Assembly: GCA_030141605.1 (NCBI GenBank)
Contig: JAQGDQ010000001.1
Span: 1,364,001 to 1,428,000 of the forward strand
Direction of reading: 5' to 3'
DNA length: 64,000 nt
Source: Tubiluchus corallicola
Taxonomy: Eukaryota > Animalia > Priapulida
The notes beneath the pieces are model-generated. The model was not told where the DNA came from. It saw only the letters and a program-made list of their open reading frames with translations, and ran no database searches. Below are positions 26,619-64,000 of this stretch, piece after piece (position 1 is the first letter of the stretch; every line of letters begins with the position of its first letter). A program made the translations under genes and the position numbers.

Positions 26619-29600
26619 TATATATATATAGTCTGCACTTTATACATTTAAATGACATGTTTGGTTACTGAACTACAAAACAATAGTTAAATTAAGTAAG
26701 CAAAAAATAAGTCTAATGAAGAAAGCATATTACATATACATAACATATAATAAAACAAATTTGAGAATTTGTACACCCATCTTACTTACAATATTTAATA
26801 CGTATAATTGATATATTTGTGTACCATCTGACCATTATTGGACTGGTACCCATATAACAGATACTAAAGACATTTAAAATATAGTGATAGTGAAATCTAC
26901 TCAAAATATATTATAAAAAATAAATAACAATGATAAAAACAGTACTTACTATCAGCTCGAAGAAGGCACTTCTCGGGGCAGATAAGTTGACTTGTGATCG
27001 CACCGCTAACATAAAATCCATCAACTTTGCTTACTTTTTCTGTAGGCAAAAACCTAAATAACACGCTGAAGTTAAAAACAGGATACAGAAAATGTACATT
27101 GGCAGCCTAATACAGATCTTGTACATAATGTATTGTTACTATATGGCAATATTAGCATTCTTTAGTGACACCTTCCAATCTACAATAGCAAGTGGAAAAA
27201 AAACTTACAAAAAAATTTCATTACGGCAAGTAGCAGAAAGTCTTATAACATAAACAGCTGCTTGGTTTGGCAGGCAACGGGCATTTCAAAAATGTTGTGT
27301 ATGTTGAATACAAATTTGAAAACACTTGTGTAAAATGAAAGTAACAAAATAATGCACAAATAGCAATAGAAAATTCCTGAACTCGTTTTCCAGGCAAGTC
27401 ACCTTGTTAGTTTGGTAAACTACTCCTCTAAAACTAGCCAAATTCCTGATAATTATAATTGGCTGAGTTTGCAGAGAGAAAAAATAGGATTAGATTTAGG
27501 TCAAACACTCCAGACACTTATAGCACATCACATTGCGGGAATCTCACAATCTTTCAGAAATGAAATAAACAAGTACTAATGTTTGTAATTGAAAGTTACC
27601 TGATGAAACTGCTTTCTTTTGGCTGTTGTTTAATCTTTATTCTGTTCAAACTCCGAAGTCTCCGCACTAGTGTCCGTTTTAATGCAAGCAGTTCAGCCGT
27701 AGAACTCTCGTTCAAAATTTCCTCGGTGACATTACTCGAGTGCTGAAAATCTGACAACAACTGTTCCAGCTGAACTTTCTGTAATCGCAAAGTATTCTGT
27801 TTTCGTTCCTTAGCTGTTGCTGCCTCTGACAAAAGTTTTTGCCTGTGTACCTCAAGAGCTTTCACGTTGTTATTAATAAAGTCATTTATGGAAGCTGAAA
27901 CTTCCTCAAATTTCTGTTCTAAGTCATTTTCAGATAAGACAATTGTATTCAAGGCTTTTTCGAGAGACTGGATTTGAGGCTTTGTTTGTGCCAAAAGATT
28001 AATGATCACGCTTGTTTGCTTATCGGACACATCGGGAATCAAGCTGCACTTATGATCTCGGTGTTCAGTCATGCAGCAGCTGTGACACAGTGGCTTATCA
28101 CAAGTTTCACAGAAAACAACTACTTGCTCACCTGCATGTTTAGAGCAGTTCAAAGCATTTACAGTGGCAGTGAGTAAATTAGTTGTTTTAAACCTGTCAT
28201 CATGAATGCTCAATACAACATGACCAACTGTTCGTCGCTGTCGCGCATGTGCTTCACGACAAAACGTGCAGAGATTCAATAAACACTCTGTGCACCGATA
28301 TCTAGCCCAGTGTTCACTACTACACAAATCACAAATAATTTTTGATCCACCAGGAGGCGTTTTTTTCAATTTCATTTTTCGATTGTGAGCAACATAGTTT
28401 ACGGGTAATGCCCGAATGCCTTGTTTTGGAATTTCTGTTTGTGAATCACATACGGGGCATAATAACGCTTTGCGGGTGCTTACCGGTGACTGCAGAGAAT
28501 TAGCAGTGTTATTAGCATTGTTAGAATTACCAAACACCAATGGTTCCATATTTTCCAAACAATCAAGGCAAAAAGAATGTAAACAAAACAAAAACCGGGG
28601 ATCAGATATGCTTGTTTTACAAATTTCGCAAACATCTTGCTGAGTAACAGCTGGTGACTGCTGTGGAATGTCATGATTTTCGGAACACTTGGCTTTTGAT
28701 CGACAATCGCAAGTTTTCCTCAATAGAGCAAGCTGAAGAATTGTTTCAGGAACAACCATGCCTTTTAGTTTCTCTTCACTTTTTGGCACAACATCATAGG
28801 TCTTTGTCTTTATTGTCTGTATGTCATTTTTTGTGTCATGTTTCATTTTTCCATTTGGTATAAGATCTTTGTTTCCATAATCTTCAAACAATTTCAGTGG
28901 CTTGACATTACTAACCTGTATTGACTCGCTTCCCAATGAAGAGTTATCTGCATCTTCATTTGTTAAAGTTGTTACATGAGTAGAGTCCGCAAACATTAAC
29001 TTATGTTTTTCCTCACAGATTTCTGTGCCATTACCATCATATTTTAATGTACCACTACAAGTTGCACATGTGTGAGGCAGTTGTGAAGTTACTGGAGCTC
29101 CCTGGCATATGTCATTCTGGCTCTTTGCCCCAAAAACTTTGATTTTGTCATCTGAATTAACATCAGCCTGAGAATTTTTTGCTTGCACACTTTTTATCAA
29201 AAATGGACTTGTAAAAATCTGTTTTACGGGTTGTTCCTTTTGCATTGACGGAGTGCTGCTGCTTATGCTTTCGGAACTTTTTGAAACAGGAATGTGTTTA
29301 TCGTTTTGTGAAGTAGAGGTTGCAGATTCTCCAATGACACCTTTGTTGGTATTAACACAACTATTACTCTGTTTGACTAATGCCCGGGTATTTGCCTCAT
29401 TTGCACAATTTTCATTGTCAGTAACACTTTCCTTTAAAGCAACTGTATTAGTTTTTTTTAGCCTATACTCTACTGAAATATCTTTTCCTTTCAAACTTGA
29501 ATCAACTGGTGTAGATTTTTCCTCTTTCTGAGCCTCCTCCTTTGATGTTACTTTTCGTACTTCAAGTCTTGCATTAAGTGGAACAACACAATCTAGATCA

Positions 29601-29686
29601 CACATTTCTTGCTCATTTTTTGCAATGGTAGTGTTCTGCAGCACACAAGACATTGTTTTTGTTTCTTCTAATGCCTGATTCTCCAT
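16882..29686 (-). CDS. TRIM45: TRIM45-like E3 ubiquitin ligase (RING, B-box1, B-box2, coiled coil, filamin, Cys/His-rich tail), 908 aa, 6 coding exons
   Basis: Exons 29686-27600, 27053-26950, 19470-19338, 18869-18752, 17792-17666 and 17039-16882; all GT-AG and phase-consistent (2727 nt). RING CEIC..CLHSFCLDC..CPVC, B-boxes CDLC..CTEC..CTFC..H and CSKH..CETC..CHSC..EHRDH, filamin DRQDGTY..HIQGSPF, and tail HSGIFHCCSFCSSGG..CACKGKMSGGFKGCGHKHPGHPGRKHWSCCGK matching the TRIM45 C-terminus. Confidence 0.93.
18581..18620. repeat. (TTAAA)n short tandem repeat
   Basis: taaattaaattcaaattaaattaaattaaattaaattcaa. Confidence 0.8.
22302..22751. repeat. Tandem duplication of a ~206-226 bp unit (22302-22507 and 22526-22751); second copy carries a (TC)n/(CCT)n microsatellite
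   Basis: Both units start atgctaatctaagtactataac, share ccaggca.gtttgaaatt.atcgcaa.gcccatgcaca and ttccagttgctcagct, and end tcttcgctaaaatcctttagcaatgctaacca. Confidence 0.9.
26538..26615. repeat. (GT)n microsatellite
   Basis: About 39 perfect units in TRIM45 intron 2. Confidence 0.98.
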
Positions 29687-30490
29687 TTTGCAGCTTAATT
29701 TTTAAAAACCACTCTAAGATATTTAGCTTACTACATCTGAATGTCTGACTTACAGTGTGACAATGCAACTGACAATGACTGCATCATGCCCAGTTAAAAG
29801 TCCTATTTCTGAAATTTTTAAAACAATTACTACAGTCATACCTCAGTTTTCGAATGTCTCAGTACTCGTACAAATCGGTTTTCGACCTGAAATTTTTTTT
29901 TTCATTTTTGCATTATTATATTTCGTTTTAAGTTTTAGTAATACTTTACAGTTCATTTGGTGCTTGAGAATGGATTATTTGCTTTTACATTATTTCTAAT
30001 GGGAATAAATGATTCACTACTCAACCAAATCGGTTTTCAAACACTTTTTAGGAACAAATTATGGTCGAATGACTGTAGTAGCTGAATCTACTATGACTGT
30101 CCTGATCACAACACTCCAGCTGAAATCAAACAAACACTATTATTTTTGCTGGATAGCAATAATATGCAGTCATCTTTAGCAGAATTACAATTCAGCACTA
30201 ATAATAACTAGCAAAACCCATGCAAAAACATTTTTGCTAAAAATCAAACTCGCAATATCCAACAAAGCATCAGTTATGACCAATAACTGATAATCAAGAA
30301 CATTTCGCACAACATCATTATGCAGAAACAATGGATAACGCAATTGGGTATAAGCAATTTTTTTATTTTCTCAGTGTGAAGTTGTAAAGAGTTGGACAAG
30401 ATTCAAAAAGTACACAAAATACCTGCATTATGTACATTAATTTATTAAGTTTTAGTTTTTGAAAAAGTAAATTGTGATTTAAATACTGTT

Positions 30491-36119: not shown

Positions 36120-39100
36120 ATGGGAACTGTAAATAAAACTGCATTTTTGATAGTAACTGCTATCAATTTGTTTACAAGTGGTGAGTTATAAAGATTTTTA
36201 GTGTTATAAATTTTGTTTGGAATACTTTACTTTCAACTTCAAGTTTATTGCCTCAGTTGCTAAAATTTTGTATTATTTTTCATATTACACGTGTTTACTT
36301 TATATTGCCACTTCATTCACACTCATGACTCATGAAAGCTTGTGGCTAATTTTTCATGTTTCTCTGGGTGTGTATTTATAACTACCTAAAGTACTTGCTA
36401 TAATGAAGAATGGATCTTATTTGAGTAGGTCTAGTTCATCTAGTCTAGTAGACTTCTAACTGCATTCACATTGTTGGGAGATGATAGGTACAGTTGTTTG
36501 TCAAGCAGAAATCTTTGTAGTATATTTCAATGTCTCATTCTCGCTTTCATACAACTCTCAAGTTTTGATTTCTTGGGATTTTAGCAGTTGTTATTTTTTT
36601 GTCTTCAAAATTCTTCGATTTTTTTGCAATACTTTTTCTTAAGTATGCACTTGCCTTAATAGTTGTGTGCCAAAATCTTTTTTGCAGTTAATTGCCACCA
36701 AGAAAGTGAGACGGTAATCTGGTATCGTACTGAAAGTTATTTTGTTGCACTGTTGCGTGGTAGATGATTTTCTCAAAAGGAGGAAATAAAAACTTTGGCT
36801 GTGAACTTCTTTCACAAGTCATGTACATGTAATTAAGTAAAATGAAAAACTGATTATAATCGTTCTAACAAAATGTGAATCATAATAATTTGTGCTTGTA
36901 AATCCATTTTAGGGTTTAAAACTGTATGTGACTTACTAATCTGCTAATGACCTTAACACGGAACTTTGATAGATGCGTTAAATTTGTTGCATGGCTCCAT
37001 GTTTTATTTATTTATAATGATAACTTGCCATTACTTTGACTCAATGTTGTCTAACTGTGAGTGTTACAGCTTTTGGACAATTATCTGTTGATATAAACCA
37101 TATTAATTTCTTTGGCTTAAAGATACATCCAAATATGAAATTCAGCACTACTTTTTAGAAAATCCATAAACAACTATTAAATTCTGCTAAGTCATAGGCT
37201 GAGGTTACAGAAGTTTTTCATCACAGAAGTTGTCATTCAGTTTAATATTACAGTAGATTGAATTACCAGATTAATTACTCATTAATAATGCATACAAAAT
37301 TTACTTTTTGTGTTCATATAAATTACATATAAATTATATATCATATACATGTAGGCCACTAAATTAGAAAGCATCTCCACCGAGATTCAAACCCAAAATA
37401 TTTTGCTTTGCTGGGCGTTCGTCATAAAGTTTTTTGACATCTCTGCAGGACGTCACTATCAGGACATAATATACGGTTTTTGTATGAAGCACCATGGGTT
37501 CAAATCTAAGTTTGTATTTTATCTAATATATTAGAGAGATGTGTGATGAGTTAACAGATCTGCAACACTAACACATAACACACGTACACCATTTTCGACA
37601 TGCATCCTAAACACCACATTAACTAACATATGTGTTAACAAGTCTGTCTGTTTTTTTACGTCTTATGTCAGGTTTTTAACATTCTTGATAGCTGGGTTTC
37701 TTGATAGCAATTGTGGATTTTGTGAATCTTTTGAAGTGAAAAATTTGCAGGGAATCTTGCTAAGTTTGGACAACTTGTAGACAATTTAGATGATTATATG
37801 TCTGCTATATTTTAAATGCTTAAACAAGCATGATGTCACCATGTGTTTGTTGCAGTTTTGTTTTGCACACAAAAAGCAACGTGTGCATGTTGTGTGTCCA
37901 CATGTGTGTGCATGCGTGCGTGCGTGTGTGTGTAAAACTAATGACGATGCTGTAAAATTGAACTTTTCCATTACCATGCAATTCTAGATTATGGCAGTAA
38001 CATGAAAAGTAAATTCACTTGCAGTAATTCCATACATTTAGATAAATGCAATATCTGGGTGTTTGAATTGGCAAATTAAGCCTAATAGCTTACATGATTA
38101 TGTCCACATCACTTTAACGTCGAGTCAATATGCTAGCCAAATATAGCTGATTTGGTTTCATATCATTCTGTGATTACTCTAAACTGTAGTTCAGCATCGT
38201 TGGACTTTCTGTAGATGGAAGATGGGTTACATACAAAGAATCTAGCAATTGTTGATTTTTGTGACTTGTCTACAGTGAATGAGGTTGGAATTAATATGCG
38301 TATAGAGGTGTGATGAGTTAACAGATCTGTAACACTAACACATAACACACAACATTTCTGACCGGCAACCTAAATATCATGTTAAGCCTGTGTCAGGGTA
38401 ACAGATAAGTTAACAAGTCTGTCTATTACAGTTTTTTACACCTTATGTCAGGTTTTTAACGTTCTTGGTAGCTGGGTTTCTTGATAGCAATTAAATGCAA
38501 CAAAACATTTTGGAATACAACCCTTAAGGCAAGTGCATTCTTTAGATAAAGTATAACAAAAATCGAAGAACTTAGCCGAAAAAAATAACAATTCCAAAAA
38601 CCCAAAACTTGAGAGTGAGTTTTATGAAAATGAAAATGAGACATCTTAATGTTCAAAGTTTATGATGACGCATGATATATTTTCTTATTATTATACTATA
38701 AAGGTTTTTGCTTGACAATGAATTGTACCTGCCAGCCTGATTAATGTACCCGCATTTAGAATTCGACTGGACTAGATAGACCAGGCCTACTCTAATGAGG
38801 TCCATTCTTCATTCTAGCATATGCATATAGATAGCTACAAGCATAATATAGTCCACCTGTTAACTTTGTTTACCACTAAATCATTTCTTTGGCATTTTTT
38901 TCTGAAGTAAGTAATATATACAGTGGGCGCCGCTTAATAGACTCGCGGTTAATAGACTCAATTGCTTAATTGACTTAAAAATGCTTATAACAGGCTGCTT
39001 CTATTCAAATACACATAAAAACTATCGGTAATTGACTCAAATAACTCCGCATAATTGACTCAATATTTTTCCTTCGCCTACTTAAAGTAAGATATTTGTA

Positions 39101-45100: not shown

Positions 45101-48100
45101 GGCGTTTTCCCGGACCCAACTAGTGATTTTTTCGAAATTTTGACCAAACAGCCTGCAGAAAAAACGTTCTGTTATTATTATTATTATTATTATTACTATT
45201 ATTATTATTATTAGTAGTAGTAGTAGTAGTAGTGGTAGTGGTAGTGGTAGTGGTAGTGGTAGTGGTAGTGGTAGTGGTAGTGGTAGTGGTAGTGGTAGTG
45301 GTAGTGGTAGTGGTAGTGGTAGTAGTAGTGGTAGTAGTCAGCAGCAGCAGCAGCAGTAGTAGTATTGAAGAAATCAGAAAAAAGAGGAAGACATTGCTGT
45401 ACAAGAAATAACACAAGCTGAAAAGAATAAAAGAAACAATTTGAAATTTGCTTTTTTAAGATATCCAAAATCACTGCACAGTTCACACTAAATCAGTATA
45501 AAGTTTAAAATCATTGATCACTGTATATTGCAATATTTCATTATGTCCTGTGGCAGGCATGGTTTCACTAAAGTTAGGCAATTTGGCATAACGAGCTGGA
45601 AGCCTGGAACACATTAGCTGTTGGTCTTTAAGCAAGGACTTACAAGTGCAATTTTTGTCTGATGTGCAGTGATAAACTACAACATTACTGAAAATGTAGA
45701 AATGACAGCAATAGTTTCATTGGACCAATTCTATGAATGGGGCCTAACTTGCAAATTTGGAGGGCTAGAACCATGAAACTTGCAGGGTAGACCCTTGAGC
45801 TGGGGGCCTTGACAATAATATGATAGTTGCTGACCTCGGTCAAAATGTCAAGGATGCAGGGCATTAGTCTGCTCAAGCCATAAAATTGAATAACCCAAAA
45901 TTTATAGGACGTAAGAGTTACGAAACTAGGCAGGGTGGTACGGACTGAGACAATGTTATGGTTAAAACAGCTGGTATTGTTTAAGTGTCCGAGGTAGGAG
46001 CTAAAATGTATAAATTAGGGCAAACTGCTCAGTCACATGAGTAAACCGTAGTGAACCAGACATAGTCAAGTAATAAACTTGGTTGGAATGCGTACAAGCT
46101 ATCTTAATGATAGTCTCATTAAATTTATTTAGTTAAATTTTGATAATACTATAGCTATTACAGACCCTTTTTTCATGCTAAATAGCTTTTACATAACAAT
46201 AGTTATACTCCTGTAATAAAAATATCACTAATGTACCTGGTAACAAAGTTACTACTTCTTAGTAACTGATTATAGAACGTGCTGAATATAATACGTATTT
46301 ATATGCCATGCAATGTTTACTAAATTTTGTACGTGTACGTAAGTCCCTCTGATTCCAGCCATTCTTTTGTAAGCTTGTCAACTGCTGCACTCATTTCGGG
46401 AGTAAAAGTATTTTCCCAGTCGCCAACTTTTCCTGAAATAATACTTGTTCAATCACCCAGTATACGATGCATTTTACATTTATTAAAGACTATTTAGTTG
46501 GCTCAAGGATAAGCTTTACCACACAGTGCTAATAACCAGATGCTTTTAAAGCTTGTACCTTTTCTCATAAACTCTCCCTGACTTTTCCATAATCCTTGTT
46601 CTCTCATCCATGACATATTTGTTCCTGGATTTTTCTGCATGTTCTTGAATGTACAGTGCTCTGCTATTTTCATCACCTGTTCCTCTGTTAACTGCTTGTC
46701 TAGAAACTTTGCTACTTTCTGTATTTCCTTAGGTAGATTCTGCAAATTTTTGCAAAAGTTTTATTAACAATTTGAATGGGCAAATCTGTGTTGATAATAT
46801 GGACTGACAGTGCAGATACGTTGAAACTCTTTTCAAAGCATTCACTATTCCTTACTAAGGAGTTATCGATAATTTTTCACAATCATGTAGCTTAAAGGAA
46901 AACAGGAGGGTTTTAGATCACATTTCATTTTGTTTTTAAATATACATTTTATTATTCATAGATACTAACTGCCTAATTCATTGATACTATTATGTGTGTT
47001 TTTTATAAATATTATTTATTTAATTAATATATATATTAGTTAAACCTCTGTGCTGACCTATCTGAAACTTTAGAGGACAGCACATTTGCATTACATATTT
47101 TGAAATGTGGAAAACATGTTTGTTGAGGGCTTTTTGGGTCATTTTATCATAATAGCATAGCAGTCAGTAAGATGTTTTTTTTTGTCATCTTTTGCTGCCC
47201 GCTTTAACTGTAATATAGTGTTTATTTACTAGTTAATTAATTTTTTGTGTCTTCTGCTGTCCTTCCTAGTAAAATATTTACCATTGTGTTGTATATACTG
47301 TGGTGAAATAGTGTACTAAACAAAGACAACTCAAATTTAAAGTGATTGTTTTATAACTCACTGCTTTCAAATCTTCAAACTTCAAAATTAGAATGTTGGG
47401 TTCATTTCGTAGTCGCCAGTATTCTTGTACATGATCCCAGATTCCTCCATGACCAGCTGAGCAAAAGATAAGACTTGTACTTCATTGTACTTAGTTTACT
47501 TAGTACTAATCCATGTACTTAGTTTACTTAGTACTAATCCATTTAAGCTAGTTGGTAAGTGACAAAATTTTTCTTTAACTGTATATTTGCTTCTTGGTTT
47601 TGCCCAGATTTACACTTTTGAAAATGACACCAACGTAATCAATCCAACTTCTTACAATAATTCAGTTAAAGTGGGTGAGAATAAATGTGTGTACCTAATT
47701 TCAGTTGTTGATTTATAACCTTTTGCAAAGGTATATGCTCTTTGAACATTGTGAATAAGTTGCCAAAGTGGTACGTGGACACTAAAGTGTCTTTCGGGTT
47801 CCTTGTCGTATAAATAACCTACAAGAAAATTCAAATAAGTGTTAAGCTGTTTATCACATGTTTGACTAATGCCATAGCAGTGTGACCCCAGTGCTAATTT
47901 TCATGTTTCTGCGTGTCAGTTACATTCTGCTTTGCATCCATATCAGTTCCCATTATTTTTTATCTCAAAATTCTCTTTATATAATGAATTAAGATTTAAG
48001 AACATGTTGAAAAACAGCAAATTAATCATATTTTGTAGACAGCTAAAAACCATGCTAACAACTTGTTGGGGAGTAACTGGCCTTCTGAATTTCAGCGAAT

Positions 48101-51100
48101 TCTGCTCTAGTGTAAAAGATGGGTCACTTGTTTGGTTTGACACATGCCTCTTCATGCATTAGAGCTAAGGTCTCAAAACCATGCTGTTGTCTGGTTGGGT
48201 TGAGCATTTTGCTTATTGGAACATGGAGAAGTATGTGCTAGGAGTAGAGCTGGAAGAAGTGTTGGTCCGAGCAATTGTGCTGCAAGCTCTAAACCATGCT
48301 AGTTCGTGTTGAGTAACTGTTAGATTATTGAAATTTCAAAAGATCTGACCAGCGGTTATTAACTTTACAAAAATTGCTATTCAACATTACCTTCCTGAGC
48401 ATGTGCATGCACAGGTAAATTGTTATATTGGAATTAGATTAAATTTTTCTTTATAGTGAACAATAGGCTTGTCTATCTGAGGTTCTTAAGTCAATATTTA
48501 TATTGGAGACACCTCTCCTTGTATGCCCTATTAGCTTACCTTGGGTTTTACTTTCATAAATTTTTTTGGTAAAAGGCCAAGAGGTAGATGTGATTTAATC
48601 AGCCGTGGACGTGGCATCCGTTTAATGACCCTAATGTTGTCGTGGAATGGAAACTCAAGGAATGGAAAGCGGTCGTCTTGTATCACATTAGTGGCTGTCA
48701 CAGTATCTGCATTGTTGCACACTAACCACACAATTTCTTGGGTCCAAGTTGTCCCTGATTAAAAAAGAAATACTAAACAGTAAAATATTAATGGTGAACT
48801 TAATTAAAAATAGACTGCCATCATCTCTCAAATTTTAATATTGCAAGAATAGAAGTGACTTCTGAGGTAAGCCTTTATTTCGTCATTTCAAACACTGCTC
48901 TCAGATGACGGTATTGTGGTGATAAAATAATATTGCATCTGCATGCCAAGACCTAGGAAAGACTACATTAACAATTTTTTCCTTATGAATAGCTGTAATC
49001 TTATCAGTAAAAGTTTATGGTTGTACTCCTTCAATATCTATTTTTCATTTCATAAACAACCCACTATATAATAAATTTTATAACATTTTTTTCTAATAAA
49101 ATCACAATAAAATTTGTTATGTAATCTTGTTACAAAGAATTTAAAAACTTTATCTGTTTTTCATACTACAGCAACGTACTCAATATTTTACCAAGGAAAT
49201 AATGGAAACTACATCATTTCTTGCGTAAGATAAGGAATCTCTTTTTTGAAACAAGCTTGACTTTGAATTTATTATTACATTAATAAAAAACAAAATTTGC
49301 TGCAAGTACCTGCTTTGATGTAAGTTATCACCCAAATGTCATCTTCATATACTTCCAGATTTTCTATGTCTTTCTGTTTATCAAAGTAAAACCAGGGTTG
49401 CCAATAATCTGAAATGCAGAATTTTGTAAATTATAATCAACACGAATTATCAAAATTCATATTTTGTTTTGACTTTTATATGTGCGTGTGTATAATTGCA
49501 GCAAACTAAATTAGAGAGCACAGTTTATATTACAGTCTCTGATTAGAGTTAGAGTTTCTTTTGATGTTTACTTTTCCATTATTTATGAATATTGTCAAAA
49601 AAACCTGTAGGAAAATCTTTTTTACTAAAAATAATTACTGTAAGAGGGCACTTAGTCACATTAGGAAAATTTCCCCAGTTTAGGTATTTTTGATTACCAG
49701 CTTTCAAATGTTGGAGAATTCCTGTGCAGTGACACAATCATAGTTCACTAAATGTTCCACAAAGCAGTAAGCACAGCTCTTTAAAGAAGAACTAGCTTAC
49801 GATGGTTCATCTATCTGGTCAATAAAAGGAACCATGCGTCTTGCATTTTTACATCAGCAAAACACTCACACATTGGTGCTGCCTCCTTGAGTTTTTTATG
49901 TTCTTAGTCCCCCGAATTAACAGATGAGACAAAAGTTAGTCTTACGTGTTCCCGGAACCTGATATAAAGTAAAATCTTTTAAGGATGTTTCGACTTTTGT
50001 CAAGTGGTCGAATCTATGTACGTGGCGTCTCCACTTCACTAATCCATAAATTCCAAGTCCCACTGCTGCTGCAGCCGCAACTCCAATGGCTATTGTTTTA
50101 TTGTCCACATAATCGGGCATTGTTAGCTTTAGAAGAGAAAACCTTTGCAAGCAATAAATAAGTTTCTGGAAAAGATAAGGAAAGAAAATTTTTTGCTGTT
50201 GTCATCAATTCATTGTTGTTGCTGATGTTGTTAGTAATTCAAGTAAATTATTGGTAAAGTATAAATCCTTATTGCTTCATTGCACTGTTTTACATTTGCA
50301 TTAATTTTGTTGTTCACTTGTGTCGTTTGACCACGTTATTTGTATAATGTCCATGTGAAATATTTGTGAGATCATACTAACTTCCACGACTACTTCTCAG
50401 TATGGATGAGTTTATTTTCATATCAGTTAGTAATTATTTCTTTTTTATTTGCTGTCTTATTGTATAATGGCGATGTTCTGGAATTAAAGTTAGTGAGCTA
50501 AAGTCAGTGAACTGCCTTAGTAACAAATTATGTGTCATTTATAGGTAGCTACAACACACCTGCTCAGCAATGTGTCATTCGCATAAATTCAAAACTTATT
50601 TCATTATAAAAGTGCGATACAATACTATCATGCCATAGGAATTTTGCCTTTCTGAGAGCTCTTCACTGGTTTTTAATGTTTCAGTCATGGGTTGGATTGC
50701 ATTGGCTTCCCTTCCTTTATTTGTAGAGCAAAAGACCAAGTAATCGATTTAATTCACTACACATATAGCTGTAATATGCTGTATAACGAGTGTACAATGT
50801 GCGCTATCTCAGCTTTTATAGCAGATTTACGCAGTAGTCTGCATATATCTGGCTGCCTATAAATATCAATTTAATTAATGCACCACACATCAACGTTATT
50901 CCCATTATACATCCTATGAGTTGTTTAAGCATACAGTGTAATGTTTTTCTCATTTACTCACCACTGATGGATTACGAGTTGCCTTGGCTCTAAAGGTGTT
51001 CACTAGGTTATTTTCTTCCTAACTCAGTTGTAAAAATGGAAAATTCCTGGAGGTACAGCAGCGCAGCCTTACAGCTAAAATATGGCCCAATCACATGCTG

Positions 51101-54100
51101 CAGGTACACAATCTATTTTTTGGTTCCGCTTTTAAGAACTCTGAAATGAGTTGGATAAACACCGCCCTATGGTTATAATAATCCTGCGTTGACAATTTGA
51201 GAGCAAGATTGAGCGCTACATACTGCGGCTGAACTTTGGTCACGCCGTTTGCTACTTGTTGCCTTAGTATTTATGTTAATCACTAACAGGTCTTGCTGTA
51301 TTTCTATATAAGCTTGCTATATTACTGTAAGCGAATGCTGTGTATTCAGCAGCTAAAATTATCGGGTGCTTCCGCGCATTTGATAGTTTTTCGTTGGCAC
51401 GGTGTGTTAGAATTGTTTTTTGTAGTTCGTGTTTTTGTTACTTAATTTAATGTTTAATTATTTAACTCTAATAAATAAAACCCAAGTAAAAATAATTTCC
51501 ACTGTATTACTTCTATTAAAATGTTCTTAAAATGAAATGTGGTATAGATCACGTTGATAGGCTATATGATCAAATTTGTAATTACATATCATTGGACACC
51601 GTGTATTAGAATAAATTGAATTGATTTCTAATGATAATGTAGTTCAAGTTCATGAGAAACAAAGTTCGTAACCAAAAAATGCGGAGGCATAAGCTAAATG
51701 GTCCAATATTAGCATGAGTGGACAATCTTTATTGTTGATTAATTGTCACGATTTCTAACAATCAATAATTGTTAAAGAAAAGCACAAACAAATCTTACAA
51801 ACGGCACTTTCTGCGCTTTTTATTTCTTTTGGGATTGATCTGTAAAGTATTGAAAATATTACTCATTCTGTGGTAAATTATACTCCACCACTTTTTTCTT
51901 TGCTTCGATCCCCACTTGCCAAGAGCGTGTTACATGCAGTTTGTCATTGCGTTATACTATCACTGAAGTCTAATAACTCTAGTGGCCTTGTTGGTAAAGT
52001 ATGACTGGGTAAGAGTTTGTGAGTGTATCATTGTTATGACTGCCCATCAAAACAAACATGACTAGGGAGCGTAGTTCATGTGGATAAGTAAATTTCCATT
52101 TAACACAACTTAATGAGAAATCACACCCACTTTCACGCAAAAAAGTTGGCATCGATCGAGAAGCATTTGTAGCTTCCTTCCTTCGAATCTGTGTCAAGCT
52201 TCCCCATGCTTTTGATTCAGTTATGTAGCTTAATTACTCAACACTATGAAAATTCCTCTTTCAGTCATTTTAATCTTTTTCTGAGCAATCCGTGTTATTA
52301 GTCAAACCGATTTTGGCGAGTTTGTCTTTGTGCTCTTTATCGATGGCCAAATGACTGCATGGATTTTAATGAAATTTTGCATGAGTGATAATAGAGATTT
52401 GTTTTCCAGTCCAAAACCAAATCGTAGTAATATCAGTACTGCAGTTTACGTATCTTAGATTTAAAAGCAACACAATTATCTTTACACTGCCTGTCTTTTT
52501 TCTCTTCACTGCCTTTTTTCCATAGTAGTCCAAGCATTCCAAAAAATAGTGAAAAGTGCAGCAAAGTAGTGTAAAGCTAATTGTTCTGCCTTCACAGCTA
52601 GCGTAAAGTAAATTACAGCATTGGTGTTACTACAATTTGTTTTTTACTGGAAAACAAATCTCTTTTAAAGTGTTTTGCAAATAAAAGAAAAAACATTCTT
52701 TCATATGCCTAAGGTTTGGGAGTTTGGTTTGGGTTTTCTGTTCGTTTACAGTGTTACATTTTTATCGTCACTTTACAATCTGACCATACACTATAACATC
52801 TTTGTTAAGTTAATTTTACTCGTAAAATGTTTTGCCAGTATATGATAATTTGATAGGATTTGTGCAAGAATGAAGAGCAATTCTGTAAAGAGATCTCTTA
52901 AGTTATAGCCACACTCTGTTCTTCACCTACTCAGTCTACTAAAAGTAGCAGAAGAATAATACATGTCTAAATAACAGATCGTGATCAGGTTATTGCTTTT
53001 TTCAAGCAACAGGAAGTTATATATGTAACTGATGAAGCTGCATTAAGCAACGGGGAAAATATTTTATGACCATAGTTTGTTGCAACGGTCTTTGATATTA
53101 ATAAGCCTGTTACATTGAAGTAGAATCTGTAGCATGAGAAGTATATTAGTGGAAAGCCATACGTCTTTCGCATTCATCTATAAATCTACATGTATATTAT
53201 ATGTAATTATGGCAAGAATAGCAACCATGAAAGACAGAATTTGTCAAACTTAGTAACACTCAGTCTTTATTTGCACTATTTATACATAATTTTCTATTTA
53301 CTGGTTCAAGCATTGGCAACACTTGTTATTTCTGATTGCACTTTTGTGACATCGTTCTAAATGCTGTTTATACTAGCAAGAATAATTAATTTTTAATTGA
53401 ATATTCATTATTTTTGAGAATTTGTTTTTACAAAGAACTCCACAAAATATATTCTAATTTTAGCAAAGAAACTTAAATTAAGTGATTGGTGATATTATTA
53501 GAAAAGCGTTGGTCATCAGCTTTTTTTGTGCATATAGTCATTGGAAATCCATTTGGTAAGCTGCAGCAGATACATTACCAAACAAATGAAGGCTTGTTAT
53601 TCTTTGTATCTGAAAGTTAATCCTTCAGGTTCTAGCCACTCTGCTGTTAATTTGTCAATCTCATCACTAAGCTCCTGGGATAATTGGTCTTTCCAGTCTC
53701 CGACTTTTCCTGCAAAAAATTACAAATAACACTTCTGTATACAGATAGTCAGTGAAAAAAAATGGTAAGAGGTCGTTCAGAAAAAAACTGTTCCCTTAAA
53801 AGTAATTTGTAGCCCTACATCCTGTTAGAGGCATTTCTAAAGGAGTATATACACTTTTTGGAAACAGATACCAGACAACAAGGCGATGTCAGCTCTTTTA
53901 GAAATGCCTGTACCAGGATGAAATGTTGTGAGCTAATTTGAGGGACAGTTTTTCTCCGGCTGATCTGTACATTTTCGGTCTCATATTTTATATCCTTAAA
54001 ATTTTTTCGTCAACGATTTTGTTCTTTATTAGATGAAACTTTTGTTTCGTGAAGTATTATACCTTTTCTCATCATGCCTCCACCCTTTCTCCAGAATCCT

Positions 54101-54264
54101 TCATCTCTCAACCATGACATGTTTGTTGCTGTGTTGTTCTTCATGTTCCTAAAGCTGCAGTGCTCTGCAATTTTCATTACTTGCTCTTCTGTCAGCTTTT
54201 TGTTAAGAAAATTGGCTACCTTTCTTATCTCTCGTGGAAGATCCTGATTAAAAGCCAAGCACAC

Positions 54265-54332
<68 letters not shown>

Positions 54333-57300
54333 TAGTACTAGTATTAGTATTAGTATTAGTATTAGTATTAGTATTAGTATTGCATTAGAAATGAAGTAAA
54401 TGTTAAGTATGCTGTTTACCAGTTACCAGTTTGGTTTAGCTAGAATGAGGTTCATCAATAGAAATGGTATTGCCGTATTTTATATGATATACAATGTTTT
54501 TTTATTTTTTATCATCTCCTATCATTGGTAAAATGTCAGCAGTCTACATGATGATATCATTCATGAGCATATTTGTATGCATATTTAATTGGCTTTCAAT
54601 TGACATGAAATCTTCTTACAAGGAAAGTTTTTCATCCTTGAGTTGCTATTCTATTTTACCAGCTTGATGACTAGTAATTATTTACCTCTTTCATATCTTC
54701 AAATACAAGAAAGAGTACATTAGGTTCATTCCGTATCCTCCAAAATTCTTGATTATGGTCCCAGAAACTTCCATGTCCCACTGAAATACAATGTAAATTT
54801 CATTTCAGTTTCATGTTCATAAGACAGTATTAGGATTATTATTTTGCAGTCTGTGCACTAAATTGAGTTACCATCCTCTCAGTCTCTGTACATACAAAAA
54901 ATGAACAGGAACTTTATGCCATTTAGCATTGTTATACTTTTTGTGTACAAAATACTGTCAGAATTAAGAACACTTTCTCATTCACCGTACCTTGCCCAAT
55001 CTGTTGCCTGACAAGATCCTCAAGAGGTATTATATCCTTTATAAATGTAAAGAGATTTGCAAAGTGTATCATGGAAATCATTACGTCTTTCGGATTGCGC
55101 GTTGTGTACACCACCTGTAATATTTGAAAATTGTAAAATAAGTTGCAGTTTTAGGGAAAGGCATGAATTTGTCAGCGACTCCGTAATTAAGTAAGTCACC
55201 GAATGGTCTGAAAAAAACTGCTACATTACTACAAATAAATAAAAGTACTTATCTAAAAAATTGTAAGCTGCTGGGATCCTAGTTGTACATAATAAAGCCA
55301 AATAGTATTGCGTATTTTTAAGTAAGCTTAAACTTATTTTCCTTTAAGTATCATTCTAAAAACTTTGAAAATTGCAGCAATTATATATTGTGTTCTTATG
55401 TTTATTAATGTACCAAAAAATTGAACACACCAATACGTTTTTATGGAAGGACAATTAGCTTAGTGGTTACAGTGAATACTTAGTGATCAAAAGTAAGCAA
55501 TGCCAAGCCTGGTCAGTAAATGGATGGGCTAAGATGCCTGTGTCACTTCAGTATGTCATTTTATAAGAATTTTCTTGATAATGAGCACCTCTTCAGTCAT
55601 ACAACCATCCACAGGCCCTGCTGTTGATTACTGAATTATAGCTGGTATTGTATTGGAATGCATAAAAAAATTCTCACCTTCCAATGTTATTGGACTATTA
55701 ACTGAATAAAGTCTTTTATGATGTCACATATAATTATATTGTTAAAAAGGTTAATAAACTATCTCAGGCAGTAAATCAATTACTACACAAATACTGTCTG
55801 ACACAGTGATACTACCAATTTTTTAGTCGCATCTAGATTCTGAGTTTAATGACAATGTCTAAAGATTTCCAAGGTAAGTGTTGTTTCGACTTTGACCTTT
55901 GGCTTGACTTCATGAAACTGTTTTGGCAGTAATCCAAGTGGGAGATGTGATTTTATGAAACGAGGTCTCTTCATTTTCTTTATCTGTGGTATAACGTCAA
56001 GGATTGGAAACTCCAAGAAGGGAAATCGGGTCTCTTGCATTACTTCTTTTGCTGCTTTTGTATCAGCATTATTGCATACTAGCCAAACTATCTCCTGTGT
56101 CCATGTTGTTCCTGCAAGAAATGTGTTCAGTAATATCAGTGACAGATTAATCTGTATGTCATTATGAATTTCATCATAATCAATTATGACAGGATCCACC
56201 ACAGAATTATTTTTTCACGAAAAAGCTGTTAAAACCAAACAAAAATTTTGATTTTGTAATGCCTCTTTATAATCACTGAATGTGATACATGCGGACAGTT
56301 ATGCTTCTCAAGTACATTAGTTTTGCTTTGCTATTTGCATTACGTTTGTGACTAACCAGCATGCCTTTACCTGCCTTAGGGTATGTAACAACCCATATGT
56401 CATCTTCATATACTTCCAGTGCATTTATTTTATCCATCCGGTCAAAATATGGTTCCATACTCCAGTAATCTAAACAAGAACAACAATGCGAGTAAGTACT
56501 TGGCTCCGTATCTATCCGGTGCAAAAACTATTAAGCTACTGCCAGTGTTGCTACTTTATGATCGAGTTGTATAGAAAAAGATCTATATTGTCGTGAGCTC
56601 GTAGATTTATTAATATTTTAGTGCTTAAGCAAATTTTCTGTCAAGATTACACATGAGCTTTAAGTCATTAGATTTATTGTTTTATTTTTTTTACATTTAT
56701 TTGTGTCTGACATTCCACTGAGTCCACTGTCACTCAGTAGTCAGAATAAATGTTACCTGTGCCTGGAACCTTGTACAACTTCAAGTTGCCATTCATTGCC
56801 GTCTGCATAACTTCCAGATGATCAAATCTATGCATACGTCGTCTGATTTTGGTAAGGGCATAAATGCTAAGACCAACTGCTGCTGTAGCTGCAACTCCAA
56901 TAACTATAGCTTTGCCTTCCATAGTACAAATCAGTGTAGTAATGCAGGTTACCTTAAATACATCAATTATGTTATATTTAACATTAAAATGGCGAAATGT
57001 GCTGTAGGAAGTTTATATTGAATTATACCTAGCGTAAGTATTGCAGAATGTCACACAACAATATTTACATACTAAAAATAAGACTAACTTAAAGCATTAG
57101 AACAATATCTGACTAATATATTAATGTAACTACGTATTAATTCTCCTGGTATATTTGTGTCTGTCTGGATATATGTGTATATGCTTACCATACGCAATTT
57201 TCTTGTCTATTGCTATACCATTTGCAATGAATTATAATAGCAAATGAACTGCTTTGGTTACCTGAATCCATAAGTGATTCATTTTTCAATCCGAGCCATC

Positions 57301-59678: not shown

Positions 59679-61795
59679 ATAGGAAAGATATAGATACTAA
59701 AACAATGTGCGGATGGTATTAGTATAAAATTGCACCCAACCAAATGTAAATACTTATATGTTGGCTCTGTTTGATAAAAGTAATATAATTTTAGATGATG
59801 GAATTGTAATTAGTTATACTGATCAGTATGTCTGTCTAGGGGAGCCAATATATGCAGTGAGCCAATAAAATATCAAATTGAGTAGGAAATAGTGGCAAAT
59901 ATACAGTGTGTCACATATGGTGTCACACATAGTGTGTCACATATATAAATATACTGATTTCATTTATCAAAATAATGATGCTCTGTATTATGTGAAAAAA
60001 CTATTGCTAGAGGGTCCTCTAAAGTCTACTTTACTATATGCATGTGAAACGTGGCTATGTGATGATATAAAACCAAACTCATAGTATGTATGTTTCATGT
60101 TTTAAAGAACTGCCGGGAGTAAGACAGCATCCCTGCATTGATTTAGTTTACATAGAGGCAGGTATCCCATCTATGTCTGCAACAATTAACTGTCCTCAAT
60201 CAAAATTTGATAAAAAATTACTTATGAGCCGAACAATATCCCGTTGAAAAAGGTTAAAATTAGTAGAACGTGAGAGAACACCAATGTATACTATTATATG
60301 TAACAGGCTACAAATAACAGATTTATAAAAGTTGAAATGAATAATATAAAAGATAAAATAAAAGCATAAAATCAAACGTGTAGGCAATACTATATCAGGC
60401 AGATTAATCTACAATTGTCTGTCGATGCTATGTATACTGAAAAACTTTGCTCGTTAGAACATTGTAGAATAGCAGCATCGCGTATGAGATTGTCATCCCA
60501 TCGTGTAATAGTGGAAACTGGTAGATGGAGTAGAATTCCATCTAATCAAAGGCTTTGTATATGTAGCAGAGATATACTAGTTGAGGAATATGTACTGTTA
60601 GATTGTGAGTTTACTGGACACTTTTGAAACCAATCCTTTAATAATATTATTGCTTTAATGAACTCAACAAATCAGTTTTGGTCGCTTTCATACAAAGTTT
60701 TGAATTTATTTAAATGATAATTAGTTTTATTGTGCAGTCTAACTCAATAGCATACAAGATAGATATTTTTTGTATGATTGTTAATTTTATAGTGTATTTT
60801 CCCTGTGTTAGTGTCACTAAATAAACTAAACTATTATCTGACCTACACTGTTGCCAAAAAAGTTTTTATGTGAATTTCTTAGTGGCATCTATTGACGGGA
60901 AATAAAAAGGTATTTGTGGATGGAGTGTAACCGAGTAGGTACTGGGATTATTTGAGAATTGGGTGTAGCCAAATAGCTACTGGGTGTACTTAATGGCCGA
61001 CGCTACTGTTTTTGTTCAGTAAATGGATGTGTGACTACCGGGTTCATACTTATTTCTGGATGTTTTCGTCTGCCACATAGTCCCATGGAAACTTGGTTTT
61101 TTACCGTTTCACAAGATAATGAAGATGGCTGAAGCCAGGCTAGTGTTTCATCTTAGATAATTGGCCTTGATAATATGATAGGTTCCAGTCACATCACAGC
61201 CCCATTTACATTGAATAGGTTCTGTGACCCAGTGCTCGATCCAGGTTTGCAGAGTGCTAAACTTAATTCTTAGTGAAACTGTGTGGCAGTTTTGCTGTGT
61301 ATGTTACAGAACAGATTGAAAAGCTGCTGATTAGAGAATGATGAAGACAGAAAGTGCTTACTTATAAATTTTTAAAACTTGAAAACGCACGAACTAAAGA
61401 CATGTTTAAACTAGAAAAATTGATAGATGGGAAACTCATATTTGTGTCCTGACAGTGCAAAAGAATGTGTAATTAACAATAATTTCTCTTCAAGTGATTT
61501 GTTGATATTTCTGTGTTTTACTTCACTGATGAATGAAGTAAAATGAATGATGATTTTTATTTCAGGGCAAGCTGGCCGTGAAGGTTTTCGTCATCATATC
61601 ATTGTAGCTTTTCTGCTAGTAGTCATTATTCTTCTTAGCCTTATCGTTTGTGGATACATCTACCACAAATACAGAGAGCAGAAAATAAACCATCCTTATT
61701 TCACTGTTGAGCTACGAGACGATAACGTCAATTTTGACGGTTTGGAACTGGACAAACAGTATAAGGCAAACTTACTGTTACACGAAAATCGGTAG
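36120..61795 (+). CDS. MEGF9: MEGF9-like type I membrane protein (signal peptide, FN3, ~3 laminin-EGF repeats, TM, conserved tail), 356 aa, 7 coding exons
   Basis: Exons 36120-36180, 40657-40821, 42600-42761, 42981-43172, 44422-44571, 59396-59506 and 61566-61795; all GT-AG, all introns phase 1, 1071 nt open. FN3 PPINIR..SIVIHWEPP..GLEPGMLYSISISA, laminin-EGF CNCNQIG..CFCKDGFLGLQCNMC and CHCANHTKGANCEMCANGYVGDP, TM IIVAFLLVVIILLSLIVCGYIY, tail KINHPYFTVELRDDNVNF resembling MEGF9 KLNAPFWTIELKEDNISF. Confidence 0.85.
36381..38836. repeat. Long diverged inverted repeat (arms ~36381-36705 and ~38477-38836) plus an internal direct repeat (37541-37712 and 38308-38492)
   Basis: Left aatgaagaatgga, ttgtcaagca, ctctcaagttttg and tgcacttgccttaa match right tccattcttcatt, tgcttgacaa, caaaacttgagag and ttaaggcaagtgca in reverse complement. 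Confidence 0.85.
38921..39864 (+). mobile_element. Non-autonomous pogo/Tigger-like DNA transposon
   Basis: TIRs CAGTGGGCGCCGCTTAATAGACTC and GAGTCTATTAAGCGCCGCCTGCTG, TA on both sides, and internal remnant NVSEQTIRNCFSH (pogo W..V...TI.NCF motif) near 39455-39495. Confidence 0.85.
40982..41094. mobile_element. 113-bp palindromic MITE (PIF/Harbinger-like)
   Basis: 48-bp arms CTGGGACTGGCTTCACAAAG... and ...CTTTGTGAAACCAGCCCCAG, a 17-nt loop, and CTG/CAG (CWG) ends. Confidence 0.75.
44790..45123 (+). mobile_element. Helitron-like non-autonomous element
   Basis: GC-rich insert after a (TA)n run, with a subterminal hairpin (cccgtaacggg) and a CTAG|T 3' end at 45120-45124. A diverged partial copy lies at 57281-57393. 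Confidence 0.5.
45171..45364. repeat. Compound microsatellite (TTA)n-(TAG)n-(TAGTGG)n-(CAG)n
   Basis: Directly visible; explains the poly-T/N and YH-repeat ORFs. Confidence 0.97.
46320..50120 (-). CDS. Sulfotransferase A (SULT1-like) with N-terminal hydrophobic anchor, 333 aa, 7 coding exons; nested antisense in the MEGF9-like intron
   Basis: Exons 50120-49946, 49408-49310, 48754-48540, 47818-47695, 47456-47362, 46739-46559 and 46432-46320 (1002 nt, GT-AG). Motifs DDIWVITYIKAGTTW, RFPFLE, PRLIKSHLP, YTTRNPKDTLVS, WDHVQEYW, FEDLK and FMRKGKVGDW. Confidence 0.95.
47487..47542. repeat. 28-bp perfect tandem duplication
   Basis: tgtacttagtttacttagtactaatcca occurs twice, next to the exon 5 acceptor of sulfotransferase A. 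Confidence 0.85.
53597..56922 (-). CDS. Sulfotransferase B (SULT1-like) with N-terminal hydrophobic anchor, 330 aa, 7 coding exons; tandem paralogue of A
   Basis: Exons 56922-56757, 56469-56371, 56111-55897, 55114-54991, 54780-54686, 54243-54063 and 53709-53597 (993 nt, GT-AG). Motifs TYPKAGTTW, PRFIKSHLP, YTTRNPKDVMIS, FWDHNQEFW and MMRKGKVGDWK. Exons 2-7 have the same lengths as in gene A (99/215/124/95/181/113). Confidence 0.95.
54266..54381. repeat. (TTA)n-(TTAGTA)n compound microsatellite
   Basis: Directly visible in intron 5 of sulfotransferase B. Confidence 0.97.
55449..55690 (+). mobile_element. Possible decayed SINE with a tRNA-like A box and a 5S-rRNA-like segment
   Basis: TAGCTTAGTGGTTA (A-box-like), followed by aagtaagcaatgccaagcctggtcagtaaatggatggg, resembling 5S AAGCTAAGCAGGGTCGGGCCTGGTTAGTACTTGGATGGG. 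Confidence 0.5.
57545..57770. repeat. Degenerate (GTGTG/GTGTGGT) low-complexity tract
   Basis: G/T-rich decayed pentamers; explains the His-rich ORF 57504-57779. Confidence 0.75.
59647..59676. repeat. (GA)n microsatellite
   Basis: About 15 units. Confidence 0.95.
59700..60833 (+). mobile_element. Decayed RTEX-like LINE 3' fragment
   Basis: YVCLGEPI, LLYACETWL, GVRQHPCIDLVYIEAGIPS and RMRLSSHRVIVETGRWSRIPSNQRLCIC...EEYVLLDC, with stops and frameshifts; ends in an aataaactaaact tail near 60820. Confidence 0.75.
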
Positions 61796-62772: not shown

Positions 62773-64000
62773 TATAAAAGTCAGCAAGAAATACTAGAAA
62801 AGTCTTATTTGTCTTATAAGACAAATTATTGAAACTATCGGCGATTATTTTTACTAAGGTAATCAGTGATATCGGCAGGCTCTGCCAGTTAAGGAAACAA
62901 GGTAATTTTTTATTTCTGCAATAAAGTTGATTTGTATATTAAGTAAGTGATCTCCTTTGTCTCTAAACTTCAAGCTGTGCTGGTCGCAGTCTTTTTTATC
63001 GTAGAAGTGTTACTGGTAATTTTGTGCTTATTACTTACTCTTGCAATTATTTTTTAAACAATAGTGTACAATATTTCTTCACTGAATTTAGTGAATTCTG
63101 TGGTATATTTGCTGAAAAATCATGTAAGTTCTACCTTGTGTAGAGTATCATTTTCTATTTTTATTGTGTATAATCTGTATAATAATTGAATTTTTCATAA
63201 ACCTTATGCTTCTAGTAACAACTATAGTAACCTGTGGTTGAAAAATGTTATTATAATAGCTTGTAACATTTTTGTCTGTAGCAGGTATTTGCAAAAATAT
63301 TTTAGTCTGCTAAGTGATAAATATTATTTAGAGATGTTTTGTTGCCGTGGTAAAGGTCTTGTGTTGCCAACTTTATGTTGCCCATATCATCATGGACCAT
63401 ATGAAGTGATTAATTTCCATGTTTTTGAGTAACTTGCATCTGGCATTTTTTATGGTTGTAATTGTTCTGAACATTATGGTTGTATGTTATATTAGTGTTA
63501 GACTTCATTGCACAAACATTCAATGCAGAGAGTAATTTCATGATTTTATCAGTGATGTAGCTTAATTGTAGTGTAGATACTGATGTTTGTTTTTAAAGCA
63601 AAATTTTTGAATCAAAAATATGGCAAAATTTAATATTGTATTTTTGTCTGTGATGAAATGCTTACACATGAGTTACTACACATGAGTTACACATGATTAC
63701 TTTAAAAAAGTTAGTCATCTCGTTAAAAAGCATTGTGTCCAATGATATGCTTTGTGTGTTGTAGACAGTAGTTACACTATATTATTTTTCATATTTGTAC
63801 GTTTTATGTAAACATTTCTGTGTATAAAATCTATATCAAACTTAATTTTACTAAACTAAAAACAAAATTAGGTTTATGTAACATAGGTAGTTACTTTTTA
63901 CCTAGTGTAAATGCTCGACATATAATTATTGTTTTATTTGTACAAGCAAATCAAAATGGTTGTGAGAACTGGTCTGATCCTTTTAGTTATGTACATCTAA

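Follow-up and report, generated by a model that had tools for sequence, protein, structure and literature searches.

Tandem priapulid sulfotransferases with a cytosolic SULT fold and a candidate N-terminal membrane anchor

We analyzed a window of 64,000 nucleotides from the priapulid Tubiluchus corallicola (contig JAQGDQ010000001.1, positions 1,364,001 to 1,428,000). It contains two paralogous sulfotransferase genes in tandem, both on the minus strand: gene B (56922-53597, 330 amino acids) and gene A (50120-46320, 333 amino acids). The gene models, built by coordinates, have seven coding exons each (Table 1). All 12 introns are GT-AG, with phases identical between the genes, and the two proteins are 63% identical (210 of 334 aligned columns). 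The N-termini quoted in the initial annotation of this DNA were both located on the minus strand of the window.

Table 1. Features of genes A and B, in window positions. X2 is a probable RNA run, chosen by species label.
Feature	Position	Strand	Basis
Gene B coding exon 1: ATG, anchor, basic cluster, linker	56757..56922	-	Gene model; joined to exon 2 in X2
Gene B hydrophobic segment, residues 5-23, predicted transmembrane helix	56854..56910	-	Sequence; AlphaFold2 helix 4-30 in P0005
Gene B exon 2, start of 5′-PSB loop	56371..56469	-	Gene model; joints in X2
Gene B exon 3, KSHLP catalytic His	55897..56111	-	Gene model, Pfam; joints in X2
Gene B exon 4, RNPKD..S	54991..55114	-	Gene model; joint to exon 3 in X2
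Gene B exon 5	54686..54780	-	Gene model
Gene B exon 6	54063..54243	-	Gene model, Pfam
Gene B exon 7 to stop	53597..53709	-	Gene model
Strong splice acceptor, 45 bases upstream of A's ATG	50165..50185	-	16/17 pyrimidines, frame open to ATG
Gene A coding exon 1: ATG, anchor, basic cluster, linker	49946..50120	-	Gene model; exon 1-2 junction inferred from homology
Gene A hydrophobic segment, residues 10-28, predicted transmembrane helix	50037..50093	-	Sequence
Gene A exon 2, TYIK variant of PSB loop	49310..49408	-	Gene model
Gene A exon 3, KSHLP	48540..48754	-	Gene model, Pfam
Gene A exon 4	47695..47818	-	Gene model
Gene A exon 5	47362..47456	-	Gene model
Gene A exon 6	46559..46739	-	Gene model, Pfam; joint to exon 7 in X2
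Gene A exon 7 to stop	46320..46432	-	Gene model; X2

Both proteins belong to the cytosolic-type family PF00685 (Sulfotransfer_1), with exons scoring 50-54 bits against a cut-off of 22. P0005, a database protein 92% identical to B, matched PF00685 with an E value of 1.2e-76. Using its AlphaFold2 model, Foldseek returned SULT1E1 (4jvl; E 5.6e-28, 35% identity), and all top structural matches were cytosolic SULTs. The catalytic histidine (KSHLP), RNPKD..S, and RKGxxGDW are present in A and B, as first reported, together with the 3′-phosphate arginine and serine. The 5′-PSB loop, originally given as TYPKxGTxW, is exact in B; A reads TYIKAGTTW, which keeps the lysine, glycine, and threonine but has an unusual isoleucine at a position that is proline in 215 of 228 matched loops. 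GHG replaces YGS in both proteins, and only two cysteines were counted. KXXXTVXXXE, the SULT dimerization motif (PMC11275347), is absent, with no TV in A, B, or the other anchored relatives inspected. Since this motif is missing, the enzymes would likely be monomers. The initial label "SULT1-type" holds for fold and motifs but not for orthology. In the tree, A and B did not group with the rows of vertebrate or echinoderm proteins.

A hydrophobic segment of 19 residues, rich in Ala and Gly, opens both proteins, and in each it is the best 19-residue Kyte-Doolittle window of the whole protein (A, 2.19; B, 2.15). Each anchor contains only two leucines and 8-10 alanines or glycines, and its 19 consecutive uncharged residues are closed by a basic cluster, with four (A) or five (B) Lys/Arg in the next 10 residues. 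Net charge is -1 (A) and 0 (B) before the segment and +3 and +5 after it. In the AlphaFold2 model of P0005, a single helix (4-30) precedes an intact SULT fold. The best hydrophobicity score was bimodal across the 258 proteins in which 19 or more residues precede the domain. Comparison of A with B gave a pN of 0.22 for the anchor, equal to that of the catalytic domain (0.22) and below that of the linker (0.34), with pS at 0.5-1.05. The bimodal scores and the pN at catalytic-domain level thus argue that the anchor did not arise by chance, and the hydrophobic segment with its basic cluster is, as initially described, conserved between the diverged paralogues. When residues 1-75 of P0005 were used as query, P0005 was the sole match (1 of 40 candidates). 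In the ESM Atlas, residues 1-45 gave zero usable matches, and the whole protein matched only generic sulfotransferase clusters.

One contig of run X2 splices exon 1 of gene B to exon 2, as proposed in the initial annotation; this junction was seen in X2 alone. Joints in the run link B exons 1 through 4 and A exons 6 and 7, with A exons 1-5 outside its cover. The putative exon 1-2 junction of A was placed by homology. In both genes, the anchor shares an exon with the ATG. This is the putative first coding exon, given the acceptors at 50165 (A) and, weaker and with a frame open into the ATG, at 57001 (B). Judged from the sequence, the acceptor at 50165 implies an upstream exon of A, which may be UTR or coding. 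A scan for presequence-like upstream exons left A with three short candidates out of 15, whereas B had no qualifying acceptor.

The architecture of A and B recurs in nine database proteins, among them RefSeq models of Priapulus caudatus. In IQ-TREE analyses of hand-picked sets (64 and 32 rows, without SULT4A1, bootstrap not settled), A, B, and these anchored SULT-fold relatives formed one clade with support of 100/99, a grouping that the initial annotation had raised as a question. In eight of the nine (RefSeq and transcript-sized contigs), a methionine lies 5-13 residues ahead of the helix; in the ninth, P. caudatus isoform P0024, it lies 32 residues before the helix, with a 19-residue extension. 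No cleavable presequence is seen in the A and B models or in those eight relatives, and an upstream exon may yet add one.

A further group, which is new beyond the initial annotation, comprises 33 relatives whose predicted anchor is spaced from the domain as it is in A and B. Named members are gastropods, bivalves, a chiton, a cephalopod, and a scorpion; XP_048767572 and XP_042212601 are examples of the long form. The helix lies 60-72 residues ahead of the catalytic core in 50 of 53 anchored proteins (A, 64; B, 66). Of the 33 long-type proteins, 29 carry an extension that is rich in Arg, poor in acidic residues, and similar to a mitochondrial presequence, versus 7 of 154 non-anchored proteins, and the run before the helix has a mean net charge of +2.3, compared to about 0 in A and B. 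These mollusc and arthropod proteins are predicted to reside in the inner membrane and to hold their catalytic domain in the intermembrane space, and their extensions point to mitochondria for anchored SULTs generally. Truncated calls occur in this group (P0162 compared to P0284 and P0235 compared to P0289).

We compared the priapulid-type and long-type groups. For anchor homology, hhalign gave a probability of 1-1.5%, with reversed controls at 1.3-3.9%, and in a second test 1 of 8 lay above shuffles, at 4/200. In catalytic-domain trees, FastTree joined the two groups at 0.894 (33 of 274 proteins, multi-domain or partial, were excluded), while IQ-TREE neither joined nor rejected them (AU p = 0.54). 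The long-type group strengthens a mitochondrial reading, but since the anchors show no sequence homology, it supports mitochondria for A and B only by analogy.

The model that we favor, with a probability of roughly one half, is that the N-terminal helix of A and B is an uncleaved mitochondrial outer-membrane signal anchor, leaving the predicted PAPS-dependent domain in the cytosol. For such anchors, PMC4010795 gives a threshold of 0.4 and at least three basic residues after the segment. A and B fit this plant-derived rule, with four to five basic residues and Wimley-White means of 0.09/0.02 (A) and 0.08/0.10 (B) on two scales. On the interface scale the rule discriminates little, as it places all 20 short-type segments and 31 of the 33 long-type ones below 0.4. 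Together, the splicing of B exons 1 and 2, conservation in the clade, and the published hydrophobicity and charge rule make a tethered, cytosol-facing SULT, as first proposed, the best reading, with the mitochondrion as the candidate organelle. The helix would span the membrane, the basic cluster would set an N-in, C-cytosol orientation, and low hydrophobicity would spare the helix from ER targeting. The predicted catalytic domain could draw cytosolic PAPS and sulfate lipophilic acceptors encountered at the membrane, with sterols, phenols, or amines as candidates. The unusual isoleucine in the PSB loop of A counts against the model.

As in Tom20 and Tom70 (PMC4010795), a single moderately hydrophobic N-terminal segment is followed by at least three basic residues, with no presequence in the models. 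Unlike them, A and B carry an enzyme domain as cargo. A sequence relationship was not detected in Pfam or the ESM Atlas, where the N-terminus had no match to Tom20 or Tom70, so the initial term "Tom70-like" stands as an analogy.

A helix followed by basic residues is also typical of ER P450-type anchors and lipid-droplet proteins, and Ala/Gly-rich segments with basic flanks can also target lipid droplets. The helix might then be a cytosol-facing ER or ER-to-lipid-droplet anchor, with sulfation occurring beside phase I enzymes or lipid stores. The flanking charges would suit any N-out, C-cytosol anchor. We consider this somewhat unlikely, as the segment is Leu-poor and low in hydrophobicity, and according to PMC4010795, more than 85% of Arabidopsis ER signal anchors lie above 0.4.

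The long-type group also introduces an inner-membrane alternative, in which an upstream presequence exon would lengthen A and B, the helix would act as a stop-transfer signal, and the catalytic domain would face the intermembrane space. The acceptors with open frames ahead of both ATGs, the 33 relatives that have an extension plus an equally spaced helix, the extension of P0024, and the existence of truncated calls are all consistent with it. However, eight of nine clade relatives begin 5-13 residues before the helix, A and B do not have the basic run that precedes it in the long group, the upstream-exon scan yielded little, and, as a weaker point, X2 has no further-upstream joint (the cover joined to B ends at 56959). 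We regard this alternative as improbable.

Golgi membrane sulfotransferases have a type II topology with a lumenal domain. Those of the CHST and TPST types share with A and B one N-terminal transmembrane segment (predicted in A and B), but belong to another family and have basic residues before the segment, which A and B do not. A cleaved signal peptide or type II anchor, which would make the enzyme lumenal or secreted, is very unlikely. The N-terminal hydrophobic core would fit, as would the small residues close to its end, a possible cleavage site, but the charge lies on the opposite side, the segment is conserved as typical signal peptides are not, both the fold and every top structural match are of the cytosolic SULT type, and there are only two cysteines. 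Least probable is an oligomerization or docking helix of a soluble enzyme that substitutes for the lost dimer motif, a role that the Ala/Gly content and moderate hydrophobicity would allow, but 19 uncharged residues in a row before a basic cluster and the bimodal split from soluble relatives argue against it.

Compared to cytosolic SULTs such as human SULT1E1, A and B are alike in fold, PSB loop, catalytic histidine, 3′-phosphate arginine and serine, and RKG, and differ in the hydrophobic N-terminus with its basic flank (by sequence), the missing dimer motif, and GHG for YGS. PMC12506393 divides sulfotransferases into SULTs, which are soluble, and membrane enzymes of the Golgi, a split that SULT-fold enzymes with a built-in (predicted) anchor break. 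Our literature search found no description of anchored SULT-fold enzymes. The recurrence of putative mitochondrial-type targeting signals in several phyla suggests organelle-level sulfation.

Such sulfation has been hinted at in mammals, where the targeting mechanism is missing. Vertebrate SULT4A1, which shares the SULT fold with A and B, is reported to sit on the mitochondrial outer membrane, facing the cytosol (PMC8803991), and SULT1C2 produces cholesterol sulfate on isolated mitochondria (PMC11411706); both precedents favor the outer-membrane model for A and B. SULT4A1 (PDB 1zd1) ranked 10th with the presequence-group profile, 23rd with the priapulid-type profile, and 31st with an echinoderm-centred control, and was never the top match. 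No database protein matched short SULT4A1 motifs convincingly, so SULT4A1 did not enter the tree. A tentative scenario, rather unlikely to hold as a whole, is that protostomes keep an ancient, previously undescribed mitochondrial SULT lineage related to this vertebrate orphan, directed to the inner membrane by a presequence and stop-transfer helix in molluscs, chelicerates, and crustaceans and to the outer membrane by a signal anchor in priapulids, which would have dropped the presequence, while insects and vertebrates lost the anchor. If true, mitochondrial sulfation would be a conserved pathway, and the anchored enzymes would be tractable, hard-wired models for the SULT4A1 substrate search. 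Candidate anchored enzymes are available in accessible animals, including Biomphalaria, Mytilus, and Homarus.

Both N-termini quoted in the initial annotation were found on the minus strand of the window, where they begin the tandem sulfotransferase (SULT)-fold genes A and B. In models whose splice sites were set by coordinates, 12 of 12 introns are GT-AG with the same phases in both genes, and the proteins are identical in 210 of 334 aligned columns. Searching the window with stored homologues (tblastn) revealed no third SULT copy. The Pfam Sulfotransfer_1 matches correspond to exons 3 and 6, while exon 1 had no Pfam match above cut-off.

Features of the window and their positions
Feature	Position	Strand	Description
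Gene B	56922-53597	minus	7 coding exons, 330 aa
Gene A	50120-46320	minus	7 coding exons, 333 aa
Gene B exon 1-2 joint	56469 to 56757		spliced in run X2, short side 70 letters
Gene A exon 2, with the PSB loop	49310-49408	minus	Ile replaces the usual Pro
Gene A intron 4	47486-47542		28-base perfect tandem duplication near the exon 5 acceptor (about 30 bases away)
X2 alignments upstream of gene B	60384-60593; 62951-63108		85-90% identity, unjoined to B; repeats, or exons from a different transcript
SCAN, zinc knuckle and aspartyl-protease matches	611-2842	minus	743-aa open frame, predicted gag-protease of an LTR retrotransposon
Rhodopsin-family GPCR frame	7668-8873	minus	401 aa, intronless
RING and two B-boxes	27596-29701	minus	single 701-aa frame, long low-complexity N-terminal part before the domains; predicted TRIM-like gene
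Inverted-repeat pair	21915-22324 / 23756-24156		300-400 bases, copies about 67% identical and some 2 kb apart; may be degraded transposon ends
Inverted-repeat pair	36396-36705 / 38477-38819		as for the preceding pair

The N-terminal segment is the most hydrophobic 19-residue window of each protein (A, residues 10-28; B, residues 5-23). Net charge before it is -1 in A and 0 in B, and the ten residues after it contain four (A) or five (B) Lys/Arg. Between A and B, pN was 0.22 for the 26 codons of anchor and basic cluster, 0.34 for the linker and 0.22 for the catalytic domain, with pS of 0.53, 1.05 and 0.80, respectively. Since anchor pN equals that of the catalytic domain and is below that of the linker, given pS, the codon comparison indicates that selection maintains the anchor. 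As initially proposed, both paralogues carry the segment and basic cluster, and the feature is real and conserved.

Both proteins retain the PSB lysine, catalytic His, 3′-phosphate Arg and Ser, and RKG, and both lack the dimer motif KxxxTVxxxE. Sequencing run X1 had zero differing letters over gene A exon 2, where Ile replaces the PSB-loop Pro, although X1 may be the window's own source. An AlphaFold2 model of the related database protein P0005 (31-row alignment; pLDDT 91, pTM 0.88) contained one helix (residues 4-30) followed by a complete SULT fold, and the top Foldseek and HMMER matches were SULT1E1 and other soluble SULTs. These predicted features do not reveal the substrate.

None of the runs recorded as RNA contained the stretch. 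We examined transcript support using run X2, a putative RNA run from a single study, chosen by its species label. X2 contigs skip four introns exactly (B exons 1-2, 2-3 and 3-4; A exons 6-7). As the listed pieces differ from the window by about 4-13%, X2 derives from a divergent population or close relative. The anchor codons lie in a separate overlapping contig (depth 18.8 versus 87.3) extending 37 bases upstream of the ATG, and no listed X2 contig covers both anchor and catalytic exons. In P0005 (329 aa, 92% identity with B), from a Logan contig of 1418 bases, anchor and domain share one frame. The proposed exon 1-2 junction is supported for B in putative RNA, while that of A comes from homology alone.

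Among named proteins, RefSeq models of Priapulus caudatus come closest (XP_014681219-25; 50-52% identical), which suggests that the window probably derives from a priapulid or a close relative of one. The layout of A and B, with its short N-terminal end, hydrophobic segment and flanking basic residues, recurs in nine database proteins (P0005-P0009, P0022, P0024, P0026 and P0030), some of which are isoforms of one locus; the segment begins 5-13 residues from the Met in eight and 32 residues from it in isoform P0024. A tree of catalytic domains alone (64 rows) paired A with B as sisters (100/93), inside a nine-row clade supported at 100/99. The two clade members lacking the anchor are a partial model and a protein with an aberrant start.

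Judged from sequence, A and B most likely work as membrane-tethered sulfotransferases whose catalytic domain would face the cytosol. We give anchoring in the mitochondrial outer membrane a probability of about 0.5. According to a review (PMC4010795), mitochondrial signal anchors are marked by moderate hydrophobicity (Wimley-White score <0.4) with at least three basic residues after the helix, while >85% of ER anchors in Arabidopsis lie above 0.4. The scores of A and B are 0.02-0.10 on each of two scales. However, nearly all segments in the comparison set fall below 0.4 on the interface scale, making this test weak. ER or lipid droplets are a possible, if clearly less probable, destination. It is unlikely that an unseen upstream exon adds a presequence, despite acceptors with open frames upstream of both ATGs. 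A lumenal catalytic domain is improbable, as the charge asymmetry around the segment opposes both a cleaved signal peptide and type II topology. Least probable are soluble A and B.

Similar helices occur more widely. A helix is predicted at the N-terminus of 51 among 272 homologues with a domain match, a sample skewed towards the query; the scores are bimodal. Counting A and B, the helix lies 60-72 residues before the catalytic core in 50 of 53. In 33 proteins, at least 35 residues precede it. Mitochondrial presequences are net positive with few acidic residues. Such a composition, taken as a net charge of +3 or higher with no more than two acidic residues among the first 30, occurs in 29 of the 33, versus 7 of 154 proteins lacking an anchor, and 19 of the 33 contain a loose processing-peptidase-like motif. 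Presequence plus helix would fit an inner-membrane stop-transfer pattern. Named long-leader members are from gastropods, bivalves, a chiton, a cephalopod and a scorpion; in one annelid and one nemertean protein the helix follows a short leader. By eye, Homarus americanus isoform X1 (XP_042212601; P0289) combines a leader resembling a presequence with a hydrophobic helix and a basic flank, while isoform X2 (XP_042212603; P0235) keeps the leader and lacks the helix, a difference that could move the enzyme between mitochondrial compartments. Taken together, the invertebrate SULTs with apparent mitochondrial targeting are of more interest than A and B alone.

Does the priapulid-type anchor share an origin with the mollusc and arthropod presequence group? 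FastTree (241 catalytic domains) placed them together in a clade of 91 (0.894). IQ-TREE (64 chosen rows) supported priapulid-type (100/99), presequence-containing (84/82, including many non-anchored rows) and insect (96/89) groups and left relations among them unresolved. In an AU test (32 rows), a tree uniting the priapulid-type and presequence-containing groups was not rejected (p 0.54), which does not demonstrate a clade. Profile-profile comparison found no match between the anchor regions, and of 8 priapulid-type anchors just one exceeded its composition-matched shuffles (4/200), both of which count against common origin. As the shared helix spacing is probably near the minimum imposed by the fold, it is modest evidence for it.

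In searches of mostly open full text, where a mention in a family table could escape, no listed paper described an anchor or presequence at the N-terminus of a SULT-fold enzyme. The anchored SULT is a new form within a known enzyme family. Published accounts describe SULT4A1 at the outer membrane, on its cytosolic face and without anchor features (PMC8803991, PMC11275347), sulfation of mitochondrial cholesterol by SULT1C2 (PMC11411706), plant SULTs without transmembrane domains (PMC12506393) and a single-copy conserved tick SULT that groups with Drosophila St1-4 and human SULT4A1 (PMC11752866); PMC5099782 offered no pertinent content. SULT4A1 scored 303 bits with the presequence-group profile (best, 329), 263 with a control profile (best, 352) and 204 with the priapulid-type profile (best, 243). 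The presequence-group scores offer a lead towards the SULT4A1 clade and are not an orthology test. The tunicate Styela clava protein (P0185/P0288; XP_039253514) falls outside the two anchored groups of the tree and has a more hydrophobic segment starting at residue 2, which probably arose separately and is possibly an independent ER-type anchor.
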